DNA of 9,801 nt from the NCBI GenBank assembly GCA_036478295.1, contig JAZGDW010000264.1, forward strand, positions 1 through 9,801, in the 5' to 3' direction. Source of the DNA: Candidatus Krumholzibacteriia bacterium (GTDB lineage: Bacteria; Krumholzibacteriota; Krumholzibacteriia; WVZY01). Positions within the stretch are counted from its first letter, which is position 1, and every line of letters starts with the position of its first letter. Below, piece by piece: positions 1 to 9,801 of the stretch. The notes beneath the pieces were generated by a model. That model was given only the letters and a program-made list of their open reading frames with translations. It was not told the DNA's origin and did not search any database. The position numbers and the translations under genes were made by a program.

Positions 1-233
1 TGATAAAAATACCCGCGCCGTGAAGGGTTCGGTGTGGTCTGGAGTATCCCCGCATCCTCGAGTTGTTTGAGGCGCGTGGAGAGAAGCGCCTTCGGGATCC
101 CGGGCAGGCCGGTGGCGAGTGCCGAGAAGGTTTCGCAACCCATCAACAAATTCCGAATGATGATCGGCGTCCAGCGCTCCGCCAGGATTTCGGAGGCCCG
201 GGCGATGGGACAGTATTGACCATAAGTACGCAC
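1..233 (-). CDS. HxlR-family winged-helix transcriptional regulator (runs off the left edge of the window)
   Basis: Manual translation from GTG at 233 gives MRTYGQYCPIARASEILAERWTPIIIRNLLMGCETFSALATGLPGIPKALLSTRLKQLEDAGILQTTPNPSRRGYFY, with no stop before base 1. It matches the HxlR pattern YGQxCPxAxAxExLxxRWTxxIxRxL...F..L...LPGI....L..RLK.LE..G. Not in the ORF track because it has no stop codon in the window. Confidence 0.92.
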   Translation of the reverse strand, partial: MRTYGQYCPIARASEILAERWTPIIIRNLLMGCETFSALATGLPGIPKALLSTRLKQLEDAGILQTTPNPSRRGYFY

Positions 234-268
234 ATCCTGAAGGTAGTCTCAGGAGTCGGAACTGTCGA

Positions 269-283
269 GTTCAATTTTTGAAC
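269..283. promoter_or_regulatory. Palindromic operator candidate GTTCAA-TTT-TTGAAC, probably bound by the HxlR regulator
   Basis: Perfect 6-bp inverted repeat with a 3-bp spacer, about 35 bp upstream of the HxlR start codon. Assigning it to HxlR is inference from the usual autoregulation of this family. Confidence 0.5.
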
Positions 284-859
284 CTAATGATCGCCGTCAT
301 GAGATTGCGTTTCGGCATGACTGCTTGAGAATCGGTGGAAGACCGCAGGTAGGTGCCGGAGACGACGGGCAGCATCCTTAAACCGCCTGTGGCGAGTGAA
401 ACGAGCGGGTATTGGTGTTATCGTTACCGTCAAACGAGGAGGCGAAGTTGCCGGTTCTAGAGGACCGTGTGCCCCCGCTAGTTCTAGCGGCTCTCCGCGA
501 AAGGGACAGACTACCCGAGCATATTCGGATTACACTCATAACACTGCTTGAGGGCTATGAGCGAGGGACGAGGTCATGGCTTCGTGAACAAGGAGCGTGT
601 GCGCGGGCCCGGTTCGATCGTCCAAAGATCTATTTTTTTCGGATTTCCCTAACGGCTAATCATTGCACCAGTTCGAGTGACAGCTTTGGTCAGTATCGTC
701 CTCCGGAGCTTGCCCCGCGAATCCATATCACGTATCCTTCCGCCGGGCCTGAAAAACGGCCTTTGCACCGCACTTCCCTTGTCGTCCCCTGGCATCGTTT
801 GGCTGCCGAGCAGCGAATGAGACACTGCCATTCTTGACAACGGCTATCAACCGGGAGGG

Positions 860-1438
860 ATGACCATGCAACGCCTCACTCCTACACACGGCCTACTTGT
901 CCTTTTGACCGCTGCGCTTGCGGTTGGCTGGACCGTCGAGCAACGCCCCACGGGCGACACCGTAACCGTCACACGGGGTGACGTTATCTATGCGGACCGA
1001 GGCAGCTCGATTCACGTCTACCGGCAAAACGACCAGTCGTATGACCTGGTCACGTCAATTGAAACCGAGCCGCGAGCGACTCACGACGACCACCATCACG
1101 ACGGAAGGCACGAGCACGGCGGCACTTTCAGTTGCTCGTACAACCACGTGCATGACCACCGTGACCATCACCACTATGATGACGACCCGTACCACGGTTC
1201 GGCAGCGCAGTTCGTCGTGACCGGGTCAACACTGATATACGTGTACGACGGCACCACCGTGGTGACGCTCGACATCTCCAGGCCCGACCAGCCGAGCGAA
1301 GTGGCGCGAATGGATGTCGGATGGAAGATCGAATCGATCACGGCCGTGGACAACGCAGTGATCATCTCCGGGGACCGCGGCGGTTATACCTATGACCCCG
1401 GCAACACAAACCTAGAGCTTCGTGACCTGGAATATTAG
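860..1438 (+). CDS. Exported His/Asp-rich protein with LVIVD-like beta repeats
   Basis: GGAGG RBS just upstream. Hydrophobic N-terminal signal (LLVLLTAALAVGW). His-rich insert. The C-terminal part QFVVTGSTLIYVYDGTTVVTLDISRPDQPSEVARMDVGWKIESI resembles LVIVD repeats (DISxPxxP). Confidence 0.8.
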   Translation: MTMQRLTPTHGLLVLLTAALAVGWTVEQRPTGDTVTVTRGDVIYADRGSSIHVYRQNDQSYDLVTSIETEPRATHDDHHHDGRHEHGGTFSCSYNHVHDHRDHHHYDDDPYHGSAAQFVVTGSTLIYVYDGTTVVTLDISRPDQPSEVARMDVGWKIESITAVDNAVIISGDRGGYTYDPGNTNLELRDLEY

Positions 1439-1498: not shown

Positions 1499-1673
1499 TG
1501 GTGGAGGCGGCGGGAATCGAACCCTTTTCACCCACGAACCCTAACCCGATGATGGTGCATGACTTCGGCTTTTACTGTGTGAAAATGCTTAGGTTGCCGC
1601 GCCGTTTCTATTCCCCTAGAGTCCCCTCCAGTCCCCTGGAGTCCTCCCCAGTCTTGGAGATATTTTGGAGACG
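1499..1673 (-). repeat. att-like repeat copy 1: tmRNA 3'-end core (1499-1524) plus conserved arm
   Basis: Plus strand TGGTGGAGGCGGCGGGAATCGAACCC is the reverse complement of GGGTTCGATTCCCGCCGCCTCCACCA. It is followed by a 149-bp arm ending TTGGAGATATTTTGGAGACG that aligns with copies 2-4. Confidence 0.95.
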
Positions 1674-1767
1674 GCGTGCACGAACCGAAGCGCGTTCTGC
1701 GTCTTCTCCGAGTACCCATCTTTCGGGCATCGAAATCGTCAATGACGCGAGACGGCTTCTAAAAAAG

Positions 1768-1796
1768 TTGCGACAGGGGTCGTGAGGATGTATACT
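1768..1796 (+). promoter_or_regulatory. Sigma70-type promoter for the YCF48-like gene
   Basis: TTGCGA-N17-TATACT preceded by an A-tract (AAAAAA), about 130 bp upstream of the ATG at 1924. Confidence 0.65.
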
Positions 1797-1798
1797 TG

Positions 1799-1818
1799 GG
1801 CTACCCTTGGGGGTAGCC
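1799..1818. promoter_or_regulatory. Perfect 8-bp inverted repeat over the predicted transcription start
   Basis: GGCTACCC-TTGG-GGGTAGCC, 2 bp after the -10 box. Confidence 0.45.
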
Positions 1819-1923
1819 ATGACGTCCGTTCATTTGCCTATCTGATTGAGACCGCCAGTCGACACATCCGGGATGACCCCTGAGCGCACCGCTGGGTTGA
1901 GCTAGGCATGCGATGGGGTTCCC

Positions 1924-4062
1924 ATGTTTCACGCTCGTTCTTTCCGAAGTCAACACCCAACATTCGCTATTCTGATTTCTGTTGTCGTCCTCGCGTCGAG
2001 CGTGTTTGCACACGCGAACGGCCGGGCGACAACGTCGGGCTGGTTCTTGCAGAATCCATTACCGCAGGCTAATGAGCTGCTCGACGTATCCTTCTCGGAC
2101 GCGAACTCGGGCACGGCCGTGGGAGAGGTTGGCACGATTGTCCGCACCACCGACGGCGGCGCGACCTGGGTTGTACAGACTAGCGGTACCGCCGAGCATC
2201 TCGAGGGCGTTTGTTTCGTGGATGCGAATACCGGTACTGTAGTCGGTTATAACGGTACAGTTCTGCGAACATCGGACGGGGGTACGACCTGGGTCAGCCA
2301 AACCAGCGGGACCACCGAGCGGCTTCTTGGAGTGTCTTTCAGCGGCCCCAATGTGGGCACGGCAGTGGGAGATGCTGGCACGATTGTTCGCACGACTGAC
2401 GGGGGTATCACCTGGGTCGCTCAGACGACCGGGACCAACAACCGCCTTCACGACGTTTCGTTTGTCGATGACAGCATCGGGACGGCGGTGGCGCAGTTGG
2501 GGGGAATCTATCGCACAACAGACGGCGGCGCGACATGGGTTAGCCAGACCAGCGGGACCAGCGAATGGCTCTTCGGTGTGTGTTTTACGGATGCGAATAC
2601 CGGTACAGTAGTCGGTGCTAGAGGCACGATCCTCCACACGACCGACGGAGGTACGACCTGGGTCAGCCAAACCAGCGGGACCACCTTTCTGCATCTTTAC
2701 GGCGTCTCCTTTGCCAACGCGAGCATCGGTACTGTCGTGGGATTGGGCGGCGCGATTCTACGAACAACCGATGGGGGTGCCACCTGGATAGCTCAGACAA
2801 GCGGCGCACTCACTCTCAGAGCTGTTGCTTTTGCCGGTGCAATGACCGGCACACTGGTGGGTGGTAGTGGCAGCATCATGCGCACCACCAATAGGGGGGC
2901 GACATGGGTCGACCAGACCAATGTGATCAAGCAATTCCTTACTGATGTTTCTTTCACAGATGCGAATAGCGGCACCGCCGTGGGAACGGGCGGTGCAATC
3001 GTTCGAACAACAAATGGTGGCGAGACCTGGGTCCCACAGACCAGCGGTACCACAGAGATTCTGTGGGGTGTTTCCCACGCAGACGCGAGCACCGGCACCG
3101 TCGTGGGAGAGAGCGGCACGATCCTCCGTACGACGAATGGCGGGGGTACTTGGGTGAACCAGACCAGCGGTACCACCGAGGATCTTTTCGGCGTTTCCGT
3201 CGTTGACGCGAATACCGGCACGGCGGTGGGTGGTCGTGGGACCGTGCTTCGGACAACTGACGGAGGTGCAACCTGGCTCCCCCAGACCAGCGGGACCAAC
3301 CAATGGCTCTACGATGTGTGTTTTACGGATGCGAATACTGGCACGGCGGTAGGGTTAGACAACACGATTCTTCGCACGACGGATGGCGGGGCGAGTTGGG
3401 CGAGCCAGACGCTATTCGGTGCCGGCTACATTCTTAGGGGCGTCTCGTTCACCGACGCCAATATCGGGACGGTCGTGGGCGACGGCGGCATGATCTTCCG
3501 CACAACCGATGGTGCGACCTCCTGGGTCGATCAGACATGGGGGGGCGGAGCGTTTCTTCGTGACGTTTCGTTTACAGATGCGAATGCCGGGACCGCAGTA
3601 GGTGCAGGCACGATCCTTTGCACGACCGACGGAGGCACGACGTGGGTCAGCCAGACCAGCGGGATTTCCGCAGACCTTTATGGTGTCTCGTTCACCAGCG
3701 CCGACCTCGGTTCGGCTGTGGGATCCGGCGGGATAATCCTTCGCACGGAGCCGCTGGCAACTGGTGTTCCAGGGTCCACGCCGCCAACGACGCGGCTCTT
3801 TCAAAACTATCCAAACCCGTTCAATCCAGTTACATCAATTCCCTATGCCGTGTATCGTGCATCCCATGTGACTTTACGGGTTTATACGCCGAGCGGTCGA
3901 TTGGTTCGCACACTCGTCGACGGGACGGTGCCGCCCGGCAGCTGGGAAGTGTCGTGGGATGGGACCAACCATGCGGGCACGCCTTTAGCATCCGGCGTCT
4001 ATTTCCTTCAGTTGCGCGTGGGTAACGTCGTACAATCGAAAAAAATGACGTTACTGAAGTAG
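1924..4062 (+). CDS. Secreted YCF48/BNR (Asp-box) double beta-propeller protein with C-terminal FlgD-Ig/T9SS-type-A-like sorting domain
   Basis: Signal peptide ending SSVFAHA. About 14 repeats of about 41 aa (W-x-QTSGT..L.GVSF.DANTGTAVG..GTILRTTDGG). C-terminal LFQNYPNPFNP...GRLVRTLVD...WDG...ASGVYFLQL...KKMTLLK. Confidence 0.93.
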   Translation: MFHARSFRSQHPTFAILISVVVLASSVFAHANGRATTSGWFLQNPLPQANELLDVSFSDANSGTAVGEVGTIVRTTDGGATWVVQTSGTAEHLEGVCFVDANTGTVVGYNGTVLRTSDGGTTWVSQTSGTTERLLGVSFSGPNVGTAVGDAGTIVRTTDGGITWVAQTTGTNNRLHDVSFVDDSIGTAVAQLGGIYRTTDGGATWVSQTSGTSEWLFGVCFTDANTGTVVGARGTILHTTDGGTTWVSQTSGTTFLHLYGVSFANASIGTVVGLGGAILRTTDGGATWIAQTSGALTLRAVAFAGAMTGTLVGGSGSIMRTTNRGATWVDQTNVIKQFLTDVSFTDANSGTAVGTGGAIVRTTNGGETWVPQTSGTTEILWGVSHADASTGTVVGESGTILRTTNGGGTWVNQTSGTTEDLFGVSVVDANTGTAVGGRGTVLRTTDGGATWLPQTSGTNQWLYDVCFTDANTGTAVGLDNTILRTTDGGASWASQTLFGAGYILRGVSFTDANIGTVVGDGGMIFRTTDGATSWVDQTWGGGAFLRDVSFTDANAGTAVGAGTILCTTDGGTTWVSQTSGISADLYGVSFTSADLGSAVGSGGIILRTEPLATGVPGSTPPTTRLFQNYPNPFNPVTSIPYAVYRASHVTLRVYTPSGRLVRTLVDGTVPPGSWEVSWDGTNHAGTPLASGVYFLQLRVGNVVQSKKMTLLK
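2041..3750 (+). repeat. Intragenic tandem ~123-bp repeats encoding 14 propeller blades
   Basis: Recurrent ACCGACGG...ACCTGGGT...CAGACCAGCGG motif. 13 T(T/S)(D/N)xG-type Asp-box motifs plus a final ILRT blade. Confidence 0.9.
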
Positions 4063-4075
4063 GTAATTGCTTGGC

Positions 4076-4097
4076 GAGTGCTATTCTTCGAGCACTC
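4076..4097 (+). terminator. Stem-loop after the YCF48-like gene
   Basis: GAGTGCT-ATTCTTCG-AGCACTC, a 7-bp perfect stem 13 bp after the stop codon, with only a short T run after it. Confidence 0.45.
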
Positions 4098-4122
4098 TTA
4101 GCGACAACGATCAGAAAAGAAC

Positions 4123-4297
4123 TGGTGGAGGCGGCGGGAATCGAACCCGTTCTACCCGTGAACCCTAACCCGATGATGGCGAACGATTTCGGTTGCTACG
4201 ACATGAAAACTATTGAGTTACCGCGCCGTTACTTGTCCTCTCGAGTCCCCTCCAGTCCTCTGGAGTCCTCCCCAGTCATGGAGATATTTTGGAGACG
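4123..4297 (-). repeat. att-like repeat copy 2: tmRNA 3'-end core (4123-4148) plus conserved arm
   Basis: Identical 26-bp core and same 175-bp length as copy 1. About 29 mismatches to copy 1 by manual ungapped count (~83% identity). Confidence 0.95.
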
Positions 4298-4347
4298 ACA
4301 CGATGTTCCTCGCGACGGCACGCGCGGCCCGTGCGCCGAGGCCTAGC

Positions 4348-4899
4348 CTATTCAAACTCGGCGCCACAGTTCGGGCATTTCTCCGCGTCCACCGGCACAT
4401 CGGCCTCGCAGGCTGGGCACTCGGCGGTCTCGGTTGCCCCAACCGTGAGGCCGCACTCCGGGCATTCGGCGACACCCTCGGGCAGCGCCGTCTCGCACGC
4501 CGGGCATGCTCCCTTCAACTCTTGCGCGGTGTAGCGATACGAGGATGCGTGTTCGGGAGCGCCCTTTAGCCAATGCGCCCGATCGATTTCCTTGGCAGCA
4601 TCGAGGTCATCCGGCAACACATAGAGGCCATACCGCGCCGTTCCTGCCTTGGGGCTTTCGCGGTGGAGCTGAACGACATTGCGGATGTGCTTCTTGGCCA
4701 AAAGCCCGCTCAACTCGGAGAGATCATCGATCCGCCCTTCTCGAAGACAGACCCCTTCGTCTTGCTCTCGAAGCGGTGGCGGTAACGCGCCGCTTTCGCT
4801 CTTGAACACGAGCGGCTTTCCGCAGTCGGCGCAAACCTCGCCGTGCAACGCGTACTCACCCGCACAATCGGGGCATGTTTTGGTTTGATCCTGGGACAC
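4348..4899 (-). CDS. Zinc-ribbon protein with three CxxC-CxxC ribbons flanking a small central domain (DUF2007-like, tentative)
   Basis: N-terminal CPDC..CADC and C-terminal CPAC..CPEC and CPAC..CPNC. Start set to GTG at 4899 (AGGA upstream), because the longer ORF extension to 5145 looks non-coding and overlaps promoter motifs. Confidence 0.8.
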   Translation of the reverse strand: MSQDQTKTCPDCAGEYALHGEVCADCGKPLVFKSESGALPPPLREQDEGVCLREGRIDDLSELSGLLAKKHIRNVVQLHRESPKAGTARYGLYVLPDDLDAAKEIDRAHWLKGAPEHASSYRYTAQELKGACPACETALPEGVAECPECGLTVGATETAECPACEADVPVDAEKCPNCGAEFE

Positions 4900-5116
4900 G
4901 GGAGATCCTATTTGTGAACGCGCGGCGTGAGGCTCGTAGACGATCGTGACTACCGGATAATGGCCAGTTTGCTTTTGGCCTTCAGCCCACTGCTCGTGAC
5001 CAGACGCATATAATAGACACCCGACGAAAGCGAAGTCCCGGCAAGCTCGGTGGTTGATCCGGGACCCCCGTGATCGTCGGCGCGGCGTGTCAGCCGGCTC
5101 CGCGGGTGACATTTGG

Positions 5117-5145
5117 AGAATATAATAGAAGCGGGCGAATCGCAA
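5117..5145 (-). promoter_or_regulatory. Sigma70-type promoter candidate upstream of the zinc-ribbon gene
   Basis: Minus strand TTGCGA-N17-TATTCT. The -35 hexamer is the same as at 1768. Confidence 0.5.
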
Positions 5146-5176
5146 GAACGACGCGATTACGGTAGAACAAGCTAAA

Positions 5177-5331
5177 TGGTGGAGGCGGCGGGAATCGAAC
5201 CCTTGTTACCTGTAAACCTTAACCCGATGATGGCGAATGATTTCGGTTTCTATAACATGAAAACGTTTGAGTTACCGCGCCGTTTCGAGTCCCCTGGAGT
5301 CCTCCCCAGTCTTGGAGATATTTTGGAGACG
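5177..5331 (-). repeat. att-like repeat copy 3: tmRNA 3'-end core (5177-5202) plus arm with a 20-bp deletion
   Basis: Identical core. The arm aligns with copy 2 but lacks two of the 10-bp GTCC units, giving 155 bp. Confidence 0.95.
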
Positions 5332-5418
5332 GTGATACCAACCGGTTCTTTGTTACTCCAGACAGCGGCCAGACGATGCGAGGCAGAACTAACAATTTGA
5401 CCTCCAGCCGCTTCCGTA

Positions 5419-7086
5419 CTATTTCAAGAGCACCATTTTACGCGTCTTGATGAAGTTCTTCGCGGTGAGTTTGTAGAAGTACACACCGCTTGCGACAAGG
5501 TCACCGCTGTTGCTCGCGCCGTCCCAAAGTACGCGATACCCGGGAGCGGCCGTCTGCGTTTCATCGACCAGTGTCCTCACCAGTTGTCCGGCGACGTTAT
5601 AGATCCGAAGCGTTACGTGAGACCGTTCTTTGATGCCGTAGCGAATCGTGGTCGTTGGATTGAACGGGTTGGGGTAGTTGGCAACGAGATAATTCGTTAA
5701 TACGAGCTCCGGGTCAACGCCGGTTGGCGTCCCGCCTGCGTACTTGGCCAGAAAGATGTCGAAGTCTCCCGCGCTCACGAGATTGCCGCCGCCGAAGTCC
5801 GCGGTGCCCCCGAAGAATCCCGTCACGATCACGTTGCCCGAAGCGTCAGTCGCGACCCCACGGCCGTTGTCAGTGCTCGTTCCCCCGAAGCGTTGGCTCC
5901 ACTGATGCGCACCGCTCGCATCGTACTTCGCCACAAAGACATCATCGGAACCCGCGCTCACGACATTGCCGCCCCCGAAGTCCGCGGTGCCCCCGAAAAA
6001 TCCCGTCACGATCACGTTGCCCGAAGCGTCAGCCGCGACCCCACGGCTGTGCTCATTGCTCGTTCCCCCGAAGCGCTGGCTCCACTGATGTGCACCGCTC
6101 GCATCGTACTTCGCCACAAAGACATCATCGGAACCCGCGCTCACGACATTGCCACCCCCGAAGTCCACCGTGCCATGGAAGGATCCCGTCACGATCACGT
6201 TGCCCGAAGCGTCCACCGCGATTGCCCAGCCGAAGTCACTGCTCGTTCCCCCGAAGCGCTGGCTCCACTGATGCGCACCGCTCGCGTCGTATTTCGCCAC
6301 AAAAACATCGTAGTCTCCCGCGCTCACGAGATTGCCGCCCCCGAAGTCCGCCGTGCCCACGAAGAATCCCGCCACGATCACATTGCCCGAAGCGTCCACC
6401 GCGATCGCCGCGCTTTCGTCACTGTTCGCTCCCCCGAAACGCTGGCTCCACTCGTGCGCACCGCTCGCGTCGTATTTCGCCACAAAAACATCGGCAGAAC
6501 CCGCGCTCACGAGATTGCCGCCCCCGAAGTCTACCGTGCCCACGAAGAATCCCGTCACGACCACGTTGCCCAAAGCGTCCACCGCGATCGTGCAGCCGAC
6601 GTCGTTGCTCGTCCCTCCGAAACGATGGCTCCACTCGTGCGCACCGCTCGCGTCGTATTTCGCCACAAAAACATCGTAGGCGCCCGCGCTCACGAGATTG
6701 CCGCCCCCGAAGTCCACCGTGCCATGGAAGTACCCCGTCACGATCACGTTGCCCGAAGCGTCCACTGCGATCGCCAAGCCTTCGTCCCAGCCCGTCCCCC
6801 CGAAACGCTGGCTCCACTCGTGCGCACCGCTCGCGTCGTATTTCGCTACAAAAACATCCTGAAGACCCGCGCTCACGAGATTGCCGCCGCCGAAGTCCGT
6901 CGTGCCCCACATTCTTCCCGTTAGGATCACGTTGTCCGAAGCGTCCACCGCGACCACCCGGCCGTAGTCACTGCCCGTCCCGCCGAAGCGCTGGCTCCAC
7001 AGGTGGACGGGAGCCGCGGCTCCCGCCGATACCGACAAAAGCAGGATTCCCAGGCCCAGACAAAAAGCCCGTTCATTGCGCCTCAT
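5419..7086 (-). CDS. Secreted SBBP-repeat seven-bladed beta-propeller protein with C-terminal FlgD-Ig/T9SS-type-A-like domain (555 aa)
   Basis: A strong RBS GGAGGTGA (plus strand TCACCTCC, 7091-7098) sets the start at MRRNERAF. Signal peptide ending SVSAGA. Seven 61-aa repeats WSQRFGG..D...IAVDASGNVIVTGFF.GT.DFGGGNLVSAG..DVFVAKYDASGAH. C-terminal NYPNPFNPTTTIRY...SGVYFYKL...TRKMVLLK. Confidence 0.93.
   Translation of the reverse strand: MRRNERAFCLGLGILLLSVSAGAAAPVHLWSQRFGGTGSDYGRVVAVDASDNVILTGRMWGTTDFGGGNLVSAGLQDVFVAKYDASGAHEWSQRFGGTGWDEGLAIAVDASGNVIVTGYFHGTVDFGGGNLVSAGAYDVFVAKYDASGAHEWSHRFGGTSNDVGCTIAVDALGNVVVTGFFVGTVDFGGGNLVSAGSADVFVAKYDASGAHEWSQRFGGANSDESAAIAVDASGNVIVAGFFVGTADFGGGNLVSAGDYDVFVAKYDASGAHQWSQRFGGTSSDFGWAIAVDASGNVIVTGSFHGTVDFGGGNVVSAGSDDVFVAKYDASGAHQWSQRFGGTSNEHSRGVAADASGNVIVTGFFGGTADFGGGNVVSAGSDDVFVAKYDASGAHQWSQRFGGTSTDNGRGVATDASGNVIVTGFFGGTADFGGGNLVSAGDFDIFLAKYAGGTPTGVDPELVLTNYLVANYPNPFNPTTTIRYGIKERSHVTLRIYNVAGQLVRTLVDETQTAAPGYRVLWDGASNSGDLVASGVYFYKLTAKNFIKTRKMVLLK
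5740..6999 (-). repeat. Intragenic tandem 183-bp repeats (7 units, the last partial)
   Basis: Near-identical DNA blocks, such as CCCGCGCTCACGAGATTGCCGCCCCCGAAGTC, recur every 183 bp. Confidence 0.93.
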
Positions 7087-7177
7087 GCTGTCACCTCCGT
7101 GCGACGGGACAACCGTCTGTGACTTGACCATGAAACAACGAACATTACTGTGCGTCCTCGTGGCGCAGGTATTGCAT

Positions 7178-7186
7178 AGTATAACA
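7178..7186 (-). promoter_or_regulatory. Extended -10 promoter candidate for the SBBP gene
   Basis: Minus strand TG-T-TATACT in an AT-rich patch about 90 bp upstream of the start codon. No recognisable -35 box. Confidence 0.5.
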
Positions 7187-7258
7187 CAACGTGAATGGGC
7201 GTTGGTGGCGGCGGCGGGCGAAGTCCGTGCCGACCTGGTGAGCGCAGCGAACAGAGAT

Positions 7259-7433
7259 TGGTGGAGGCGGCGGGAATCGAACCCTGTCGCGGTGCAAACC
7301 TTAACCTAATGGTGGCGTGCGATTTCGGTCACTACCGCTTCAGGAAACTGGAGTTACTCCGCCGCCACTTGTCCTCCACAGTCCCCCCGAATCCACTGCC
7401 GTCCACCCCAGTCATGGAGATATATTGGAGACG
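7259..7433 (-). repeat. att-like repeat copy 4: tmRNA 3'-end core (7259-7284) plus the most divergent arm
   Basis: Identical core and 175-bp length. Keeps AACCTTAACC, GATTTCGG, GAGTTAC, the 10-bp-spaced (G/A)TCC boxes and TGGAGATATATTGGAGACG. Confidence 0.93.
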
Positions 7434-7507
7434 CTGCCGGAGTAGCCGATCCGTGGCGAAGTGTTCGTCATCGGTCACATAACTTCCTTGCGCTCAGCCG
7501 CGCTCTA

Positions 7508-9801
7508 TCACTTCGCCTCGCCACCGCCCAGTGCGTTCAACCGCTGCTGTGCATCCGCCACTTGCGGCAGTCCCTCGTCTGCCTCAGACCACATCTCGAG
7601 AAACTTTGTGAACGCGGACACCGCATCCGCCGGACGCCCCATCTCCTCATAGATTTTGCCCAGCTCGTAATGCGACAGCGCGTGGCCGCCGTAGATTCGG
7701 AGCAGCTCCTTGTGGACTCGGGCAGCTTCATCCGACCGACCGGCTAACTGGTGGGCTCGTGCCATGGCCTCCCGCCACTCGATATCGTGCAAGCCTCCAG
7801 TAGGGACTCCTTGCCGTCGCATCTCATTTAAAGACGCCAGAGCCTTTTTGGGATTTCCCTCCGCGAGCGCAATGTCTGCAGTGACCTTGCGCACCAGGAA
7901 TCTTACTAGACCGCCATATTGTTTCTCCAGAGGCAAGAGCTCTGTCACAGCAGACCGAGCTGCTTCGAGGGATTCCAGGGCGACCAACGCCCTTGCGCGG
8001 GCCCGTATCACTTCGCGCCGCGTAAAGCGCGTCTTGGAACGCTTCGCCAGTGCTTCGGCCCAGCCTAGCACCTCTTGGGCCCGCCCCATCCGCAGTAGAA
8101 GGCGATTGCGGCTGGTGTCAAGGCTGATCTCACTATCTAGACCGGATACGTCTTGCCGGGCCTCTTCAAAGAGTTCGAGCGCTTTGCTGAAGCGGCCCGT
8201 CTCGGCATGAAGCTGGGCAAGGCCCGGCCAACCCCCGGTGGGAATAATGAGCCTAATCCGTTCTTCAGGTGAGAGATCACTCTCTCTCAGGATTCGCTCA
8301 AATATTTCGATGGCCCGGTCCAGATTGCCCCGGCAATATGCAGAGTAGCCCATGCTTTCCGGAAAACCTGGACCGATCTTGAGAGCCTGGCGAAAAGCTG
8401 TCTCGGCACTGTCGGGTAAGCCCAGGCTCAAGAATCGAAGCCCCCGCTCATCCCAGGCGTTCGCTGTTCCCGGATGTCGCTTGATATAGACCTGACTCCA
8501 TTCGAGCGCCTCCTCCAGGCGACCCATGGACGCGAGTGCCTGACCATATCTGCTACCGAAGCCCAGATCGTCCGGGTAAAGGGCAAGCCCCCTTTCGGCG
8601 ACCTGGATTGCCTCGTTGGAATACCAGTACCAAGACAATAGCGCAGAGAGATCGCCGAGAACCTCTCGGTCATCCGGCCAGCGCGAGAGCATTTCCCGGT
8701 ACGTACTCAAAGCATCTTGGATGCGCCAGTCCAACCGCTGCCGGTACGCGTCGAGCCGCAGGCGATCCTTGAGCCCTAAACGCGTCCGCAGTTCCCATGC
8801 CCTCTCGGCAAAGGAGCGAGCGCGATCGCTCGCTACCTTAAACGGGGTTGCCCTGGCCAGCTCAAAAAGGGCCAGGGCGAATGTGGAGTCGAGCCTCACT
8901 GCATGCTCTAGTTCACGTATTGCTTCCTCCTCTCGAACTTCCTCACGTGCCAGAACGCCGGCCACGTAGTGTCGATAAGCCTGCGGCGAAGCCGTGGTCA
9001 GCGTGCTGACCGACGGCGGCAAGGTCGGCTCTTCCACTCCACATTCACTCGCGAGCAACGGCAGGACGCCGGCGATAATCTGATCCGCCAGCATGGCCAG
9101 GTTCTCACCCTCCACGCGCCGTGCGCCGAGGCTCTTCCCATTCCGTGTATCCACCAACTGCCAGGTGATGTACGGGTTGACGCTCAATGTCACCATTTGT
9201 CCCGAGAGGAGCATCGTCGCCCCAGACTTTCGCGCCACCTCGAGGGCCTGGTCCTCCTCGATCGGGCCGCGACCGGCACCAAAAAGGCGGCGGCGCAGGT
9301 CATAAAGATACTGAGGGCTCACGACCCGGCAGGGACTGCTCTCCACAAGGCCCACCTGCACCAAGCCTGTAATCCCCGCAGACGCCGTCGCGTCATCGGG
9401 TGTTCCCAGGTCCCGGAAATCCACCACCGCTACGGCCAAGTCCTCGGTGGGAGACACCGCTCCGTGTTGCCACAGTGATTTCCACATGGTCACGCCAACG
9501 ATCACAACAACCAAGGCAACGACTGCGTATTTGATCAGATTCTTCTTAGGCTTCGGCGTGGGTGCTCTCTTCAGCTTGCGCAAGTCCACGACCAGCTCGT
9601 CCACGTGTTGGTATCGATCGGAGGGCTTCTTCTCGAAGCATTTGCTGACAATCCGCTCCAGTTCCATTGGAACCCCGGTGCGCAATGCCGTTATCGGCTC
9701 TGGACGCTCATGAACGATCTGGAAGGTCACCGCTTGCTCAGGTTCGCCGCTGAACGGCAAGCGCCCGGTGAGCATCTCGTAGAGAACCACGCCCAGCGAC
9801 C
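7508..9801 (-). CDS. Hanks-type Ser/Thr protein kinase with TM helix, TolB-N/CsgG-like domain and TPR repeats (5' end outside the window)
   Basis: The frame is open to the right edge and reads SLGVVLYEMLTGRLPF (kinase subdomain IX), then LERIVSKCFEKKPSDRYQ (XI). TM segment YAVVALVVVIVGVTMW, then LAVAVVDFRDL, then many TPR-like helices (AETAFRQALKIGPGF; SHYELGKIYEEMGRPADAVSAFTKFL). Confidence 0.93.
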   Translation of the reverse strand, partial: SLGVVLYEMLTGRLPFSGEPEQAVTFQIVHERPEPITALRTGVPMELERIVSKCFEKKPSDRYQHVDELVVDLRKLKRAPTPKPKKNLIKYAVVALVVVIVGVTMWKSLWQHGAVSPTEDLAVAVVDFRDLGTPDDATASAGITGLVQVGLVESSPCRVVSPQYLYDLRRRLFGAGRGPIEEDQALEVARKSGATMLLSGQMVTLSVNPYITWQLVDTRNGKSLGARRVEGENLAMLADQIIAGVLPLLASECGVEEPTLPPSVSTLTTASPQAYRHYVAGVLAREEVREEEAIRELEHAVRLDSTFALALFELARATPFKVASDRARSFAERAWELRTRLGLKDRLRLDAYRQRLDWRIQDALSTYREMLSRWPDDREVLGDLSALLSWYWYSNEAIQVAERGLALYPDDLGFGSRYGQALASMGRLEEALEWSQVYIKRHPGTANAWDERGLRFLSLGLPDSAETAFRQALKIGPGFPESMGYSAYCRGNLDRAIEIFERILRESDLSPEERIRLIIPTGGWPGLAQLHAETGRFSKALELFEEARQDVSGLDSEISLDTSRNRLLLRMGRAQEVLGWAEALAKRSKTRFTRREVIRARARALVALESLEAARSAVTELLPLEKQYGGLVRFLVRKVTADIALAEGNPKKALASLNEMRRQGVPTGGLHDIEWREAMARAHQLAGRSDEAARVHKELLRIYGGHALSHYELGKIYEEMGRPADAVSAFTKFLEMWSEADEGLPQVADAQQRLNALGGGEAK

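Follow-up and report, generated by a model that had tools for sequence, protein, structure and literature searches.

Single genes between tmRNA-derived attachment sites in a Candidatus Krumholzibacteriia contig: a probable tandem accretion of integrative elements lacking an integrase

How do single genes come to stand in a row between direct copies of one non-coding repeat, with no recombinase among them? The question is raised by the window analysed here, which is the entire 9801-bp contig C184 in the assembly of a Candidatus Krumholzibacteriia genome (G000; 3.52 Mb in 316 contigs). An earlier note on this DNA had taken the repeats for the sites of a new cassette system, stacked at ssrA, the gene for transfer-messenger RNA (tmRNA). 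Our analysis explains the striking repeat pattern without a new mechanism, as a known kind of island pile-up at ssrA. The window is probably a tandem accretion, at ssrA-type sites, of small integrative elements without their integrase module, and its units would be either fixed or mobilisable only by a helper.

A repeat search of the window found a single family with four direct copies, starting at 1496, 4120, 5174 and 7256. When the four copies are aligned, each contains an invariant 26-mer, TGGTGGAGGCGGCGGGAATCGAACCC, which we call the core (at 1499, 4123, 5177 and 7259). It is joined to an arm whose far end forms a second invariant block in all four copies. Whole copies differ from one another by 10-33%. 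Arms 2 and 3 are 90% identical and the remaining pairs are 67-85% identical, with exact cores and motifs. Copy 3 measures 155 bp and is 20 bp shorter than the others (175 bp), having two 10-bp repeats fewer. The copies are arranged as follows.

Core 1, 1499..1524, minus strand: identical to the final 26 nt of tmRNA, which comprise T-loop, 3' acceptor strand and ACCA; crossover and identity block of the attachment (att) site.
Arm 1 (P arm), 1525..1673, minus strand: 23/28-nt motif at 1673-1646; GGAC repeats spaced by 10 bp at about 1650-1608; conserved block GAAGTC..CGCCATCA..GGTTAG at about 1566-1534.
Core 2 and arm 2, 4123..4297, minus strand: core 4123-4148, arm 4149-4297.
Core 3 and arm 3, 5177..5331, minus strand: core 5177-5202, arm 5203-5331, 20 bp shorter.
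Core 4 and arm 4, 7259..7433, minus strand: core 7259-7284, arm 7285-7433.

The sole tmRNA gene of the genome lies on a separate contig (C256:23525-23879, 179.5 bits), and the core corresponds, as reverse complement, to its final 26 nt. Every window core matches these at 26/26 positions, and no window copy has a damaged 28-nt motif. Across the assembly, exact matches to the 26-mer are confined to the four window sites and the tmRNA 3' end (C256:23854-23879); a site at C224:15137 carries 3 mismatches. Similarity to tmRNA is confined to the core, and the arm has none to the tmRNA body. The Rfam model RF00023 scored the copies at 14.3-19.6 bits, below its gathering score of 47, and ARAGORN predicted no genes in the window.

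A profile hidden Markov model (HMM) built from 76 elements found five copies in the genome, four of them in the window in one orientation and one on C224. Because the exact 26-mer is confined to a few places and the profile finds five copies in the genome, the four-copy pattern is neither chance nor a genome-wide repeat. The fifth copy (C224:15137-15441) has a degenerate core with 3 mismatches. Window positions 7266-7563, comprising arm 4 and the last ~56 nt of a kinase/tetratricopeptide repeat (TPR) gene, are 96.6% identical to C224:15144-15441 over 298 bp. This copy is a recent duplication of the arm and gene end onto another contig.

The earlier note had described tmRNA-derived att sites in four same-orientation copies, each with an invariant core and an arm of conserved length, and had suggested a profile search for copies scattered through the genome. 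The core, being the last 26 nt of tmRNA, bears out the att-site reading. Derivation from tmRNA holds for the core and does not extend to the arm. Orientation and core invariance were confirmed; the conserved arm length fails in copy 3, and the count of four is raised by the copy on C224. The profile search found the copies clustered, not scattered.

What, then, is the arm? Read in the tmRNA direction (window minus strand), a copy begins with CGTCTCCAAWATATCTCCAWGACTGGGG, continues through two to four GGAC repeats of ~10 bp and a variable stretch to the conserved GAAGTC...GGTTAG block, and ends in the core. GGAC recurs in the arm with a 10-bp period. RNAalifold found no consensus secondary structure in 76 aligned elements on either strand, and long sequence blocks are conserved. 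The 10-bp period and the lack of a fold give the arm the look of a protein-binding DNA site. Judged by sequence, the arm resembles the arm of an attP and not an RNA gene, because it has a fixed length, conserved sequence, no structure and helically phased repeats, and ends in a copy of the local target gene.

The arm is not peculiar to this genome. The 28-nt motif, allowing up to 3 mismatches, was found in 14 of 41 related genomes including G000, and a reversed control gave no matches. The 23-nt version occurs in 16 of the 36 genomes of the order, G000 included. A wider scan with the exact IUPAC pattern, using one genome per species, returned 109 stretches, where by our own estimate ~3 chance matches are expected. 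Their record titles name Latescibacterota/Krumholzibacteriia, Acidobacteriota (many of them Vicinamibacterales), Myxococcota, Eisenbacteria, Gemmatimonadaceae and Planctomycetota. The Myxococcota include cultured Myxococcus, Corallococcus, Hyalangium and Archangium. Among 106 unique motif instances, 74 are full arms with a core, 16 are truncated arms and 5 sit at an integrase gene's 3' end; a further 5 are motif-only or other, and 6 lie too near a contig end to judge. A scan for T-loops flagged 71 of the 106. In these the T-loop part of the core starts mostly at +147 to +150 from the motif, and in a few the core lies at +129 or +139/140, corresponding to one or two 10-bp repeats fewer. The core itself varies by copy. 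It is the 3' end of tmRNA in many and of various transfer RNAs (tRNAs) in others; at locus L143, it is the 3' end of a tRNA-Gly gene located 3.9 kb upstream.

Copies of the module are also seen in environmental reads. Parts of the window were found in 20 public read runs, none of which contained half of its words. In X1, X2, X3 and X20, runs that bear the label marine sediment metagenome, contigs agree with stretches of the window to within 0-3 differences. Depth in these four runs piles up on the bins with arm and core, indicating a module common to many community members. The run contigs end at the repeats, and the joints listed have sides of less than 31 letters at 90% likeness. Loose contig ends at 4122, 5172/5173, 7250/7258 and 1675 show only that the arm and core have other flanks in those communities.

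The motif leads to the enzyme. Its reverse complement encodes ..HGDILETA.., which is the C-terminal tail of one tyrosine-integrase family ('..GDILET..'); the integrase at locus L130, for example, ends in ...RYMHLSPAEMERAIRLLDAPPPGQSHGDILETAQS. In five instances, the motif is followed by an opposite-strand tyrosine recombinase gene whose end is 17-45 nt away from a core. Of 72 loci of at least 3 kb, three (L125, L130 and L139) have a full-length cognate integrase. Integrase fragments occur in ~10 further loci of this set, mostly as the last ~50-70 residues beside a core.

The L139 locus, on a closed Eiseniibacteriota chromosome, contains a tmRNA core, a full int gene, 4.8 kb of further DNA, an arm with core, an int remnant and more int fragments. 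Insertion sequence (IS) elements of rve/IS3-like, IS66 and IstB types lie within or beside this intact ssrA-linked element, at 8652-9899, 4012-5625 and 953-2197. The L130 element carries int, an excisionase-like HTH_17 gene and AAA_25. Directly adjoining it is an integrase-less unit with a single PQQ propeller gene between two arm and core sites. The L125 element combines int with a TraG-like coupling protein, and L143 holds PIN_12, UvrD and an integrase remnant. In the phylum of the window, 4 of 208 genomes have an integrase match at E<=1e-35. In two of these four, G069 and G092, an integrase 61-62% identical to P0001 over its full length is found in the expected orientation, 45 nt away from the gene for tmRNA. 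The complete elements are ordinary small integrative elements, possibly mobilisable. Together, these sequence comparisons show the arm and core to be an attR-type site of the GDILET tyrosine-integrase family, with a predicted P arm of ~149 bp and a core of 26 bp.

Two further loci place the motif near tRNA genes. At L157, an intact tRNA-Gly gene (5883-5956) is followed 45 nt on by the motif at 6001, an integrase remnant and, 1.4 kb further, an arm with core; the unit is ~1.6 kb. At L102, the motif at 6001 lies 45 nt past an intact tRNA-Ser gene (5862-5955), with nothing recognisable after it.

G000 itself has eight PF00589 matches, none of which is in the window. The motif was absent from all six gene ends inspected. 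Several of the genes inspected belong to other tRNA-targeting elements. Contigs C85 (1-320) and C183 (1-330) open within the C-terminal end of another tyrosine integrase, nearly identical between the two. GTGTAA-type repeats follow, as does, by eye only, the reverse complement of a tRNA-like 3' end. The two contigs represent a different family of tRNA-targeting elements that breaks the assembly.

Arrays in relatives sit at ssrA and change by whole units. In G015, G023 and G018, they lie directly downstream of ssrA, with three, one and one units, respectively. On a single contig of G015, tmRNA is followed by an M36 peptidase gene with arm and core, a PD40 propeller gene with arm and core, and ~10 genes with arm and core. 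Both the core of tmRNA and that of the first array copy are exact there, and the two distal cores have 2 mismatches each, as along a gradient of age. In G023, the order is tmRNA, a C-terminal integrase remnant, a glycosyltransferase-like gene, and arm with core. The remnant covers 49-51 aa, lies 110 nt from ssrA and is 65-67% identical to P0001. It reads QRRMH where QRYMH is expected, so that the catalytic Tyr is replaced. The distal unit is common to G015 and G023, with its arm shortened to 55 nt in the latter, and the ssrA-proximal units differ among G015, G018 and G023. A homolog of the second G015 unit stands directly after ssrA in G018; G015 thus carries an extra unit on the ssrA side.

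G001, of the same genus as G000, has an ortholog of the window's SBBP propeller gene (cargo 3 below) beside a truncated arm and an exact core. Its distal flank is 88.7% identical to the tmRNA end and flank of G000 over 62 bp, the 26-bp core counted. Window units 1 and 2 are absent from this locus. In G011, assembled as one contig, arms with degenerate or truncated cores lie near 0.77, 2.05 and 3.87 Mb (L075-L077), away from its ssrA at 3.36 Mb, so that arrays can be displaced or old. At one of these three loci there are two adjacent copies; the loci could be displaced old arrays or secondary-site insertions. No integrase was found among 20 proteins scanned from the relatives' loci. The arrays of G015, G007 and G011 and the contigs C224 and C256 gave no match in a tblastn search for integrase remnants (E<1); the only one came from G023. 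Taken together, the truncated arms, degenerate distal cores and integrase pseudogene of the relatives indicate descent from integrase-bearing elements.

The window holds three complete units and one cut unit. Each consists of cargo, P arm and core and has neither an integrase module nor a copy of the motif on the integrase side (the P' motif). The cargo and the DNA beyond the last core are listed here.

Cargo 1, 1924..4062, plus strand: 712-aa YCF48/BNR beta-propeller with 14 repeats of 41 aa and a FlgD_ig/Por_Secre_tail C-terminal sorting domain.
Cargo 2, 4348..5145, minus strand: 265-aa double zinc-ribbon protein.
Cargo 3, 5419..7131, minus strand: 570-aa SBBP beta-propeller with 7 repeats of 61 aa and a type IX secretion C-terminal domain.
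Cargo of the fourth unit, cut by the contig end, 7508..9799, minus strand: Ser/Thr kinase fragment and TPR protein.
DNA distal to the last core, 3..1438, no strand assigned: 192-aa and 141-aa open reading frames (ORFs) without a Pfam family, and an HxlR-type helix-turn-helix fragment; presumed to be chromosomal flank or older decayed material.

Only 31-127 nt separate a core from the next gene. The G+C content of the cargo (0.594-0.619) is typical of the genome (0.598). A Pfam scan of 11 window ORFs found no recombinase. The three complete units had been described as holding single unrelated genes. One gene per interval is correct, but cargoes 1 and 3 share the type IX secretion C-terminal sorting domain, which is seen with Pfam and also as an inverted repeat in the window. 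This domain, which ends both propellers, has many paralogs in G000. The propellers appear in the DNA as tandem repeats inside the cargo, with 14 x 123 bp at 2076-3746 (BNR/YCF48 blades) and 7 x 183 bp at 5739-7005 (SBBP blades).

The DNA just beyond the core is also shared with tmRNA. A GC-rich hairpin follows the real tmRNA and several cores at a distance of ~40-56 nt (C256:23880-23935; window 7202-7258 and 4063-4122). In its 3' strand it imitates part of a second core (CCGCCGCCTCCAC...), and the one beside core 4 is given here.

Partial second core, 7202..7218, minus strand: reads CCCGCCGCCGCCACCA on that strand and lies on the downstream side of core 4, at ~41 nt; its like is found behind the real tmRNA and also behind several other copies.

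This feature is probably part of the GC hairpin that ends the tmRNA transcript. A flank of ~56 nt recurs in similar form behind tmRNA and core 4, in part behind core 2, and in G001. This may be the terminator of tmRNA, which either travelled with the units or was copied together with them. The gene immediately past the real tmRNA, at C256:24239-26578, is a 779-aa ORF that is paralog-like to the cut kinase/TPR gene of the window by DNA and translated similarity.

These observations suggest how the array may have formed. In the tmRNA direction, a complete element consists of the tRNA or tmRNA gene with its core, 17-45 nt, an opposite-strand int gene whose last codons are the 23-nt motif, genes for excisionase, replication, transfer or defence, cargo, the P arm with its motif and GGAC repeats, and a core. 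The circular attP would then read motif, 149-nt P arm, core, ~45 nt and motif/int, with the motif on both arms in the same orientation. Each unit would have entered through integrase-mediated recombination at a core, and with each new arrival the older units would come to lie farther from ssrA. For the integrase module, loss would have come either by decay or through a helper excising precisely alone and leaving its passengers behind. A helper sitting at a core may excise using any downstream arm and core as attR and take passengers along. If it excised alone, it would remove exactly the segment from P' and int to the arm, leaving passengers with no P' remnant, which would explain why the units keep only the P-arm side. 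The units would now be fixed, or mobile only when a helper of the same family integrates alongside, as in the accretion and cis-mobilisation of cis-mobilisable elements (CIMEs). Simple decay is favoured by the G023 pseudogene, the truncated arms (16/106) and the degenerate distal cores.

Several points weigh against accretion at ssrA followed by loss of the integrase, or at least against parts of it. A search of the order's 36 genomes with a 371-aa query found a cognate integrase in none of them, many being incomplete metagenome-assembled genomes (MAGs), and the best full-length match had 32% identity, which leaves an active helper in this lineage hypothetical. No trace of an integrase was found in the window by tblastn with four integrase queries (E<1), and slow random decay should leave both fragments of the integrase and damaged att sites. 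The window cores and motifs are perfect, no integrase trace is left and the gaps are 31-127 nt, so that a clean loss when a helper excised, or an arrival of the units as passengers, may account for the window better than decay. Binding of integrase or excisionase to the motif and GGAC repeats is predicted from their arrangement. Finally, ssrA is absent from the window contig, and after the real ssrA contig C256 runs 6 kb to its end without an arm. The link of the window array to ssrA in G000 therefore rests on the relatives. Since C256 ends without an arm, the ssrA-proximal unit of G000 may be split across contigs. C184 could not be joined to C256 or C224, as kinase paralogs and repeats block the inference.

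A bolder form of the same idea gives the array a continuing function. The integrase-less units would be living passengers in an ssrA-anchored platform for gene accretion, their arm and core kept by selection for hitch-hiking, and a transient GDILET helper would land at any core, leave with any number of units and drop units when excising alone. We regard this as doubtful. If it is true, the array would be a shuffling store of secreted-protein genes across a little-known phylum, with an integron-like outcome reached from tRNA/tmRNA att sites. A different proposal, closest to the earlier note, makes the single-gene units themselves mobile: an integrase supplied in trans would excise core-to-core circles and reinsert them at ssrA, so that the array would be an active cassette platform for gene capture and reshuffling. 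It would fit the four perfect cores and four perfect distal motifs of the window with no integrase trace, the consistently small and mostly single-gene units of several genomes, the differences in unit content exactly at cores among close relatives, and the presence of the cognate integrase at ssrA in the phylum. However, both sites flanking a unit are of the attR type. Because the units have no P' motif, canonical attL x attR excision of a single unit lacks an attL. The order has yielded no cognate integrase, the relatives point to integrase-bearing ancestry, and no core-to-core circle or deletion junction has been shown in the contigs, which are broken at the repeats. Such a platform is unlikely. 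As for the earlier note, its statement that the units between copies carry no integrase agrees with the Pfam and tblastn results. In the relatives G015, G023 and G018, copies do cluster beside ssrA, and relatives do break at the core, with whole-unit differences in G001, G015, G018 and G023 in place of one fixed gene order. The claim of a new cassette system fell, as the arm serves as P arm in an ordinary family of integrative elements with a tyrosine integrase, which was identified. The note's weaker alternative, a stack of attR scars left by a single island family, comes closer, with the difference that the cargo is still in place and nothing but the integrase module has gone.

The array could also have grown after one island insertion, by homologous recombination or segmental duplication between arm and core copies. 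Such events do occur in this genome, as the recent 298-bp copy of arm 4 and the gene end on C224 (96.6%, degenerate core) shows, and arms 2 and 3 are 90% identical. But the other arms are just 67-85% identical with exact cores and motifs, as would be expected had diverged elements entered independently. The cargo differs between units, one and the same architecture stands at ssrA in several genera with different cargo, and the arm identities already suggest that arms of one array are not each other's closest. Growth by duplication is most unlikely. It is scarcely credible that the arm and core are instead a small RNA gene, a tmRNA/tRNA-like decoy or a 3' untranslated element of upstream minus-strand genes, multiplied by duplication. 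Weak matches to the tmRNA covariance model (14-19.6 bits), the position of three of the four copies, each a short way past a minus-strand gene whose orientation it shares, and a few compensatory-looking pairs among the five local copies in RNAalifold speak for it. Those scores are far under the gathering score of 47, and ARAGORN reports nothing. The T stem is not formed upstream of GGG, 76 diverse copies give no consensus structure on either strand, the 3' end switches with the local tRNA/tmRNA target, and the motif doubles as integrase coding sequence.

Narrower candidates were rejected in the course of the analysis. For an RNA gene in the arm, the compensatory pairs seen with five local copies vanish with 76 copies, and Rfam and ARAGORN stay below threshold. 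For a tmRNA gene, paralog or pseudogene, the Rfam matches are likewise sub-threshold, ARAGORN gives 0 and the arm has no tmRNA body. Plus-strand ORFs span each copy, and coding was rejected given the 20-bp deletion in copy 3, the 10-bp repeats and the absence of a Pfam family for the four ORFs. A dispersed repeat of the miniature inverted-repeat transposable element (MITE) or repetitive extragenic palindromic (REP) type was rejected with five copies in 3.52 Mb, four of them in a single orientation in the window.

Tandem accretion of integrative elements at ssrA, which remains the probable explanation, has several consequences. A profile of ~175 nt for arm and core marks the attR far end of islands that belong to a single integrase family, in six phyla or more. 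It works in fragmented MAGs without an integrase and could help to delimit islands. An uncultured lineage stockpiles type IX-secreted beta-propeller genes and other accessory genes beside ssrA. If the units are helper-mobilised, they would provide a clear natural case of cis-mobilisation outside Firmicutes.

How does this array compare with known systems? Like integrons, it places mostly single genes between recombination sites, with no recombinase in the units. Unlike integrons, the window has no IntI or attI, its sites are conserved in sequence and not as hairpins, its genes lie in both orientations, and the sites come from the tRNA/tmRNA target. The imperfect hairpins of attC were not found, since no consensus structure emerged from 76 copies on both strands. 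The integron-like logic proposed earlier does not hold: an attC-like fold is missing, and relatives show an integrase pseudogene, truncated arms and degenerate distal cores. Lambda-type attP is a further comparison for the site. There, the P arm bears arm-type Int sites as well as Xis and IHF sites, and the core separates it from the P' arm, which adjoins int. The predicted site likewise has a ~150-bp P arm away from int, short repeats at helical spacing, and the motif on both arms in direct orientation. It differs from lambda attP in that the P' motif copy lies inside the last codons of the integrase. In Mx8, attP overlaps the int coding region, which is reminiscent of this arrangement.

At the level of arrays, two traits of known island stacks can be recognised. 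The direct repeats are the 3' end of the target gene (26/26 nt, four times in the window). A cognate integrase beside attL with an arm at the far end is seen in L139, L143 (as a remnant), L130, L125, G069 and G092, and not in the window. Genomic islands of Prochlorococcus are built by tycheposons, small integrase-carrying cargo elements that target tRNA and tmRNA genes (Hackl et al., bioRxiv 10.1101/2020.12.28.424599). According to the part of that preprint available to us, successive integrations push older elements inward and leave fragmented integrases and partial tRNAs as remnants. Tycheposons belong to a different phylum and element family, and that part of the preprint describes neither a conserved long arm nor regular single-gene, integrase-less arrays.

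The closest precedent is the set of ssrA islands in Dehalococcoides (McMurdie et al., 2011; PMC3146451). These are tandem and carry a 20-bp ssrA repeat with a conserved 15-bp neighbour. An integration module was reported in 16 islands, and others were discussed as possible cis-mobilizable elements or fixed relics. Like the window, they have a short conserved motif just upstream of each repeat, their content is strain-specific, and some units have no integration module. The Dehalococcoides islands use a serine recombinase (DsiB, CcrB-like), in contrast to the tyrosine integrase, 26-bp core and 149-bp arm found here. The units here are also much smaller (1-3.5 kb, mostly one gene), and none in the order has an intact integrase.

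CIMEs provide the second comparison. In streptococcal integrative and conjugative elements (Pavlovic, 2004; Bellanger, 2011; as covered in the review PMC5704250), they are decayed elements that lost integration and transfer genes and kept their att sites. They form tandem stacks at the target gene's 3' end, and an intact relative integrated next to them can mobilise them in cis. The window units share the loss of integration and transfer genes, as judged by Pfam and tblastn. CIMEs are defined as keeping both attL and attR, whereas the window units keep the P-arm side (attR intact in 4/4) and none has the P' motif. Non-autonomous att-flanked units that rely on the integrase of another element have already been described as CIMEs. 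A limited literature search, which cannot show that anything is unpublished, found no paper with 'GDILET' and no description of the arm or motif. Three features may be new in their detail: a pan-phylum P arm of fixed length with interchangeable tRNA and tmRNA cores, a motif that doubles as the last codons of the integrase, and regular single-gene, integrase-less arrays in this lineage.

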